A program made the translations under genes and the position numbers. From Escherichia coli (GTDB taxonomy: Bacteria; Pseudomonadota; Gammaproteobacteria; Enterobacterales; Enterobacteriaceae): a stretch of 217 nt of DNA. Shown here piece by piece: positions 1 to 217 of this stretch; position 1 is the first letter of the stretch; each line of letters opens with the position of its first letter. The notes beneath the pieces are model-generated. The model had not been told where the DNA came from. It made no database searches and worked only from the letters and a program-made list of their open reading frames with translations. Where the stretch lies: NCBI RefSeq assembly GCF_003334385.1, contig NZ_QOWN01000228.1; one strand, 5' to 3'.

Positions 1-217
1 CCGCGTGTAGAACACCAGGCGGTGCTGGCTGTCGTAGTGGTGGGTCCGCTCGTCGTGCATCCGTATCACCCCTTCCGGGATGCGGTCCGTCTTCTCCGCC
101 AGCCTGCCGTATTCATCGTGGCGGTAGACATAGTGCGCATCTTCCGCGATGCGGTTATCCGGCCATGCCGTGAGCGTGCTGTCCGGGTGCAGTTCCGGGT
201 CCGGCAGCCGGTTTCCT
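1..217 (-). CDS. rhs: Rhs-family / YD-repeat protein, conserved core region (internal fragment, truncated at both window edges)
   Basis: Seen in sequence: minus-strand frame with codons at + 216..1 is open for all 72 codons and translates to [72 protein letters not shown]. The other two minus frames carry stops (TAA at + 155-157, TGA at + 68-70). About 85% of codons end in G/C (61/72). Established knowledge: YD-repeat-like motifs ([19 protein letters not shown]) and overall similarity to enterobacterial Rhs core sequence as recalled. Family-level symbol only; the paralogue (rhsA/B/C/D etc.) cannot be assigned from this fragment. Confidence 0.88.

Follow-up and report, generated by a model that had tools for sequence, protein, structure and literature searches.

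The Rhs elements of Escherichia coli (rhsA-H) are reportedly known from the work of Hill and co-workers, and the classical view that they were imported is said to be captured in the very title of Wang et al. 1998. The anomalous GC content of their cores has, of course, been in the literature since the 1990s. For Jackson et al. 2009 (PMC2935791), the pairing of a GC-rich core with an AT-rich tip was already established, GC peaks served to delimit core fragments, and rhs was argued to be an ancient enterobacterial family in which lateral transfer is occasional. A good example from that paper (Figure 4) is the clade II gene SMA1610 of Serratia marcescens, with a core at 67.7% and a tip at 46.4% G+C. 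More distant homologues, from other hosts, are the solved Rhs effectors of type VI secretion systems (T6SS), namely P. aeruginosa Tse5 (8cp6), P. protegens RhsA (7q97), Acinetobacter Tse15 (8uy4) and Salmonella Rhs (8qja-8qjd). By analogy with these, an E. coli core would be a beta-cocoon of YD repeats around a variable C-terminal toxin, and would be delivered by the adjacent T6SS.

Here we consider a stretch of 217 nucleotides from E. coli (‘the window’), which is very probably an unremarkable stretch from inside an E. coli-type Rhs core, its high GC content being the known compositional signature of that family. Since the GC-rich core and AT-rich tip had been established by Jackson et al., the high GC of the window is a re-observation of a textbook property; the observation made in the initial annotation is confirmed and its interpretation supported, for a feature that was already known, and the anomaly here helps to confirm what the window is. 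The gene that contains it shares with E. coli Rhs elements (clade I rhs, NF041261) a score above the equivalog cut-off, a GC-rich YD-repeat core of ~1250 aa ending in PxxxxDPxGL, a variable AT-rich tip followed by small ORFs, an ISAs1/H-repeat alongside, a ‘dsORF-h1’ neighbour and linkage to vgrG/hcp, and it shows no difference of substance from them beyond a single His-Tyr (6 nt) that most E. coli Rhs alleles have and the window allele lacks. With SMA1610 it has in common the contrast between core and tip and a low-GC trough that reaches downstream, although that gene belongs to another clade and host and has long arrays of dissociated tips, whereas our locus has two complete cores with an IS element between them. 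The likeness to the solved T6SS effectors consists in homology across the cocoon, found by a search of PDB sequences with the core (E = 5e-117 to 5e-52), together with the C-terminal Rhs core domain; the difference lies at the N-terminus, where our protein has DUF6531 and no Pfam PAAR in its first 400 residues.

The window within its gene

Two of the six frames of the window are free of stop codons, these being the minus-strand frame at offset 1 and its antisense mirror. The former is open across all 72 codons (GC1/GC2/GC3 = 0.69/0.40/0.85), and its translation (…HRLVFYTR) matches profile positions 921-994 of the NCBIfam family NF041261 (RHS_core) with E = 1e-43 and 149 bits, a homology by which we identify it as the coding frame. 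Pfam, applied to the window alone, gives a weak RHS_repeat match (E = 0.93), and an Rfam search of both strands of the window returned no family match. The antisense frame extends to 218 aa (positions 19879-20532 of the ETEC1749 locus described below, L001; 1-216 of the window on the + strand) and was considered as a gene; we found no supporting evidence for it, and an open antisense frame is an expected by-product of a GC3-rich sense frame. The features of the window are collected in the table.

Features of the 217-nt window, in window coordinates
Feature	Position	Strand	Basis or composition
72 in-frame codons, residues 922-993 of the 1408-aa RHS element core protein	1..216	-	GC 64.8%, GC3 0.85
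Third base of the preceding codon, Ala921 (GCA)	217..217	-	Frame offset and alignment to L001
Single 6-nt unit ACCACT (coding strand)	36..41	-	Alignment with RHS2 and RHS1, unit counts
15-nt direct repeat, first copy (CTTCCGGGATGCGGT on the + strand), part of DRIPEG	72..86	-	Repeat search, family D1
15-nt direct repeat, second copy, 93% identical, part of NRIAED	141..155	-	Repeat search, family D1

The two copies of the 15-nt repeat are spaced by 69 nt, or 23 codons, and they reflect the periodicity of the YD repeats. Of more interest for the distribution of the allele is the ACCACT unit, which is present once in the window and RHS2 (L001 20167) and as two tandem copies in RHS1 (L001 13080) and most E. 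coli alleles, giving HHYD and HHYHYD, respectively, an in-frame His-Tyr difference that is consistent with replication slippage. Of 5426 complete E. coli genomes, 3652 have homologues of the window at 80% identity or more, the median copy number being two. Most of these E. coli matches span 223 nt at 97.3% identity, and it is because of the missing 6-nt unit that matches at 99% or more are limited to three of the 5426 genomes. Exact matches are likewise confined to three E. coli chromosomes, all pig-derived (ETEC1749, ETEC4085 and rl0044).

In ETEC1749 (NZ_CP122712.1), a chromosome with four rhs cores, the window occupies positions 20001-20217 of the recovered locus, inside a CDS (17239-21465) that encodes WP_151309019.1, a protein of 1408 aa. 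This gene, which we call RHS2, stands second in a tandem pair of rhs genes, with RHS1 upstream of it; upstream of the pair stand tssB/C/E/F/G, tagH, hcp and vgrG, while ISEc1, the ‘dsORF-h1’ gene, IS66 and ISAs1 are interspersed in the locus, and yafV-ivy-fadE then follows. The full protein scores 2562.4 bits over positions 1-1261 of NF041261, for which the equivalog cut-off is 2000 bits. It matches TIGR01643 (YD_repeat_2x) in seven stretches (E = 6e-47) and TIGR03696 (Rhs_assc_core) at residues 1178-1255 (79.6 bits), with the motif PIRYTDPLGL (PxxxxDPxGL) at residue 1246. In residues 1-400, Pfam finds DUF6531 (49-126) and RHS repeats and no family match to a PAAR domain; residues 1-48 may hold a short, divergent PAAR-like segment. 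From the homology across the cocoon to the solved Rhs effectors, taken together with the gene context, we infer that the protein is a T6SS-associated polymorphic toxin and that the window covers part of its toxin-enclosing YD-repeat shell.

Base composition of core, tips and host

For comparison with the host we used a sample of 250 kb, made up of five evenly spaced regions of the ETEC1749 chromosome, which carries the window exactly. The 217-nt windows of this sample have a mean GC of 0.516 (sd 0.059), which puts our window at z = 2.2, and 0.68% of them reach 140 G+C, most of these lying in the phn operon. GC3, taken over 72-codon stretches of 153 long-ORF gene proxies, has a mean of 0.571 (sd 0.088), and 0.28% of the stretches attain 61 of 72; host genes overall stand at 0.530 GC, with GC1/GC2 of 0.605/0.418. 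The initial annotation had counted 140 G+C in 217 bases and about 85% of codons ending in G or C, and our recount gives the same picture (64.5%, and 61 of 72 codons). It had also held that the window would be compositionally atypical if the host were E. coli-like, and the host is indeed E. coli, at ~51.6% GC with a gene GC3 of 0.57. The comparison that it proposed with the genome average and with flanking genes sets 64.5% against 51.6% in the 250-kb sample and 49-57% in the flanking genes of L001, the T6SS genes of the same island included, and neither the GC nor the GC3 of the host is similar to that of the window in the recovered context.

A single window of 217 nt at 64.5% GC is unusual in E. 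coli, not unique; the exceptional feature is high GC sustained over the whole 3.8-kb core. The RHS2 core stands at 63.7% GC over 3765 nt (GC1/2/3 = 0.653/0.495/0.764), and the richest stretch of 3765 nt in each of the five sampled host regions has 55-62%. Within the core the window is typical in GC, 52% of core windows being at least as rich, and its GC3 falls in the upper 9%. The phnC-phnP operon of ETEC1749 (L006 ~16200-26050), which is unrelated to Rhs, has 62.2% GC over 3765 nt.

Where does the excess come from? When the amino acids of the core are recoded with host codon usage, GC comes to 56.8% and GC3 to 0.561, as against 63.7% and 0.76 in reality, and the window recoded in this way comes to 54.1% as against 64.8%. 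Set against the 53.0% of host genes, the recoded core assigns ~3.8 of the 10.7 excess points to amino acids and ~6.9 to synonymous choice; for the window, the amino-acid share is ~1 of 12 points. The GC excess of the core is thus mainly a matter of synonymous codon choice, and one that is foreign to E. coli. The preferred codons are mostly G-ending (CGG, GGG, ACG, GCG, GTG and GAG), together with the rare ATA and AGG. For example, CGG makes up 40% of arginine codons in the core and 9% in the host, AGG 13% and 2%, GGG 34% and 14% of glycine codons, ACG 61% and 28% of threonine codons, GAG 72% and 29% of glutamate codons, and ATA 31% and 5% of isoleucine codons. Third-position G stands at 0.465 in the core versus 0.291 in the host, and C at 0.30 is barely raised. 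A simple GC shift does not account in full for this codon bias of the RHS1 and RHS2 cores, which could limit translation.

The initial annotation had further predicted that GC would drop at the boundary between core and tip, and the drop comes directly after PIRYTDPLGL. In sliding windows GC runs at 0.65 through the core and, past DPxGL (L001 20974), falls to 0.485, 0.445, 0.42 and 0.34, so that the RHS2 tip as a whole has 43.7% GC and a GC3 of 0.222, versus 0.637 and 0.764 for the core; the upstream RHS1 has the same core/tip pattern. The RHS2 tip (L001 21004-21462) has a match to the YkuD L,D-transpeptidase catalytic domain of Pfam (E = 4e-5) and carries HGGGS...GCTR, which suggests a peptidoglycan-targeting, Tlde1-like toxin fused to the Rhs core. 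This likeness to the Tlde1 L,D-transpeptidase-like T6SS effectors concerns a part of the protein outside the window and is a comparison by domain, and the fusion to an Rhs core sets our protein apart from the stand-alone Tlde1 effectors; a PDB sequence search with the tip gave no match at E <= 0.1. Two small overlapping ORFs (21443-21661 and 21658-21834; 72 and 58 aa; 28-37% GC) lie 3' of the tip and may represent an immunity gene that is split or novel. An NCBIfam search of these two ORFs and of dsORF-h1 returned no family match, and the family search of downstream ORFs identified no immunity protein for the RHS2 tip. For the RHS1 tip (L001 13923-14657, 245 aa) neither Pfam nor NCBIfam gave a match, and NCBIfam gave none for the 125-aa ORF that follows (14660-15037); the two form an uncharacterised pair of putative toxin and putative immunity protein.

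Origin and persistence of the GC excess

It is helpful to ask whose anomaly this is. A contig scan with a single-protein query found only eight loci, all of them close relatives or probable contaminants, and the range of host GC among the close relatives is narrow (47-56%) for that reason. These relatives, namely two loci from E. albertii and one each from Citrobacter youngae, Atlantibacter and Pseudocitrobacter, combine cores at 0.60-0.64 with flanks at 0.47-0.56 and tips at 0.36-0.42. A coarse cross-host panel came from tblastn of the core against plasmids and holds mostly homologues of 25-35% identity, from hosts that are mostly GC-rich already. In this panel core and flank stand at 0.43 and 0.40 in Nostoc, 0.45 and 0.415 in Vibrio, 0.564 and 0.509 in an IncC plasmid, 0.542 and 0.554 in Agrobacterium, 0.633 and 0.568 in Halomonas, 0.619 and 0.639 in Burkholderia, 0.696 and 0.678 in Streptomyces, and 0.538 for both in an Acidobacteria metagenome-assembled genome (MAG). 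Since distant Rhs genes track the GC of their replicon, the anomaly belongs to the enterobacterial core lineage and not to the Rhs fold. The E. albertii locus is syntenic with ours: its housekeeping flank is 91.9% identical to that of E. coli (L007 6429-13018 versus L001 26082-32675), and the identity of its core to RHS2 is 90-91% (90.3% for L007 1206-4944 versus L001 17219-20946). As the core has diverged about as much as the housekeeping flank, its presence at this locus predates the split between E. coli and E. albertii.

The RHS1 and RHS2 cores of L001 form a mosaic of blocks at 57-100% identity, and the window sits in a block that is identical in the two save for the 6-nt indel. The Chi site (GCTGGTGG) is found on neither strand of the RHS1 core (L001 10140-13922) or the RHS2 core (17239-21003); notwithstanding the name ‘rearrangement hot spot’, this absence is not significant, since only ~2 would be expected at the density of the host sample (0.26 per kb).

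Singleton synonymous changes in five cores run 92:28 from GC to AT over AT to GC. In a stationary simulation parsimony alone gives 1.56:1 at the composition of the core, and the observed ratio is higher (p = 3e-4). The control genes were yafV-ivy-fadE-lpcA-yafJ-dpaA, taken from seven E. coli strains, with an E. albertii outgroup; they give 150:86 when polarised by the outgroup and 75:27 for singletons, and an AT-biased signal is familiar in young polymorphism. With a similar raw excess in housekeeping genes of the same locus, 92:28 loses most of its force as evidence of decay, and in view of this control and of the parsimony artefact we have withdrawn it as proof of amelioration. Under lax polarisation the Rhs singletons of five close cores run 72:27, where 5.8:1 is expected from the per-site rates of the control at a GC3 of 0.77 (p = 0.0015). 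Strict polarisation, in which an ancestral state is accepted only when the two distant cores share it, gives 15:1 from only 16 events, with 6.3:1 expected (p = 0.7). All versions of the directional test reject 1:1. The E. albertii core was rejected as an outgroup for Rhs since it is nested within the diversity of E. coli cores, its identity to RHS2 being 91% versus 88% for RHS1. The directional tests are method-dependent, and they do not discriminate between an import that has yet to equilibrate and a GC content that is partly maintained.

We lean, with modest conviction, towards the classical historical cause, the foreign origin cited in the initial annotation, in which the core lineage came from a GC-richer background, entered the enterics by horizontal transfer and has so far not equilibrated, while the AT-rich tips and their immunity genes would have been swapped in from other sources. 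The excess of 92:28 over the parsimony artefact speaks for such an origin; the similar excess in the flanking housekeeping genes in both of its forms, the larger share of AT-to-GC changes per site in the cores than in the control under lax polarisation, the vertical inheritance of the core at this locus since before the E. albertii split, the great age in enterobacteria that Jackson et al. claim for the family and the lack of an identified GC-rich donor all speak against it. It is also conceivable, though we think it unlikely, that the 20-point excess in GC3 is actively maintained in enterics rather than being just what is left of an import, GC-biased gene conversion among recombining core copies or selection for G-ending codons being possible processes. 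The mosaic of RHS1 and RHS2 would suit maintenance, as would the antiquity of the family in enterobacteria argued by Jackson et al. 2009 (PMC2935791) and the core ratio of 72:27, which equals the raw control ratio of 75:27 despite a much higher GC3 and falls below 5.8:1. A core GC3 of ~0.77 at the locus in E. coli and E. albertii alike points the same way, but this constancy says little, since their divergence is too small for measurable amelioration. Against maintenance, conversion from unsampled paralogues would mis-polarise changes and push the ratios toward 1, the strict ratio fits host rates, 1:1 is rejected throughout, and GC3 along the core has no significant correlation with inter-paralogue identity (rho = 0.31, p = 0.14). 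Should the excess turn out to be maintained, Rhs cores would give bacterial biased gene conversion a natural test case within single genomes.

Two further explanations fare much worse than an unequilibrated import. That the amino acids of a YD-repeat shell (Gly, Arg, Pro, Thr, Tyr and Asp) force the high GC is very improbable, and as the main cause largely refuted: the core is indeed rich in Arg, Gly, Pro and Thr, it exceeds the host in GC1 and GC2, and the recoded core remains at 0.568 as against 0.530 for host genes, but this covers little more than a third of the excess in the core and about a twelfth in the window, GC3 is 0.76 where 0.56 is expected, and in Nostoc and Vibrio Rhs genes of the same architecture have 43% and 45% GC, respectively. 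The notion that there is no anomaly at all, only a chance local peak of GC or a GC-rich host, is barely credible, and for the recovered genomic context it is refuted. It can draw on the host windows that do reach 64.5% and on the 3.8 kb of phn operon at 62.2%, yet the host sample stands at 51.6%, in both tandem copies the high GC runs through the whole core (3765 nt) and stops precisely at the core/tip motif, and E. albertii, Citrobacter, Atlantibacter and Pseudocitrobacter show the pattern again.

The island across strains, and probable stray core fragments

The T6SS/Rhs cluster at tRNA-Asp is an accessory island, as seen from one E. coli strain in which tRNA-Asp lies directly beside yafV with no island (L027 11813-12758); another strain (L026 9619-12000) keeps the T6SS genes and hcp and has an IS3 element in place of vgrG and rhs. 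In ETEC1749, the strain that bears the window, tssF is annotated as frameshifted (L001 1942-3791). The rhs gene at the tRNA-Asp/yafV locus is frameshifted in three other strains, in one of which vgrG is frameshifted too (L022 5284-8947; L023 3894-5220 and 5296-8947; L024 5342-9842). To judge from these annotations, decay of the T6SS-1/Rhs system seems to be under way in many E. coli strains.

Segments that are compositionally atypical and repeated, as these are, are prone to assembly breaks. E. coli-type Rhs cores also turned up on two short contigs from MAGs whose labels name unrelated phyla: one labelled Collinsella sp. (L008, 2619 nt), at 100% amino-acid identity and with the 223-nt form of the window present exactly, and one labelled Lentisphaerae (L010, 3462 nt), at 79% amino-acid identity. 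Both are probably mis-binned enterobacterial fragments. Mis-binning driven by GC was considered for the ‘Collinsella’ contig and rejected, the contig having 52% GC overall.
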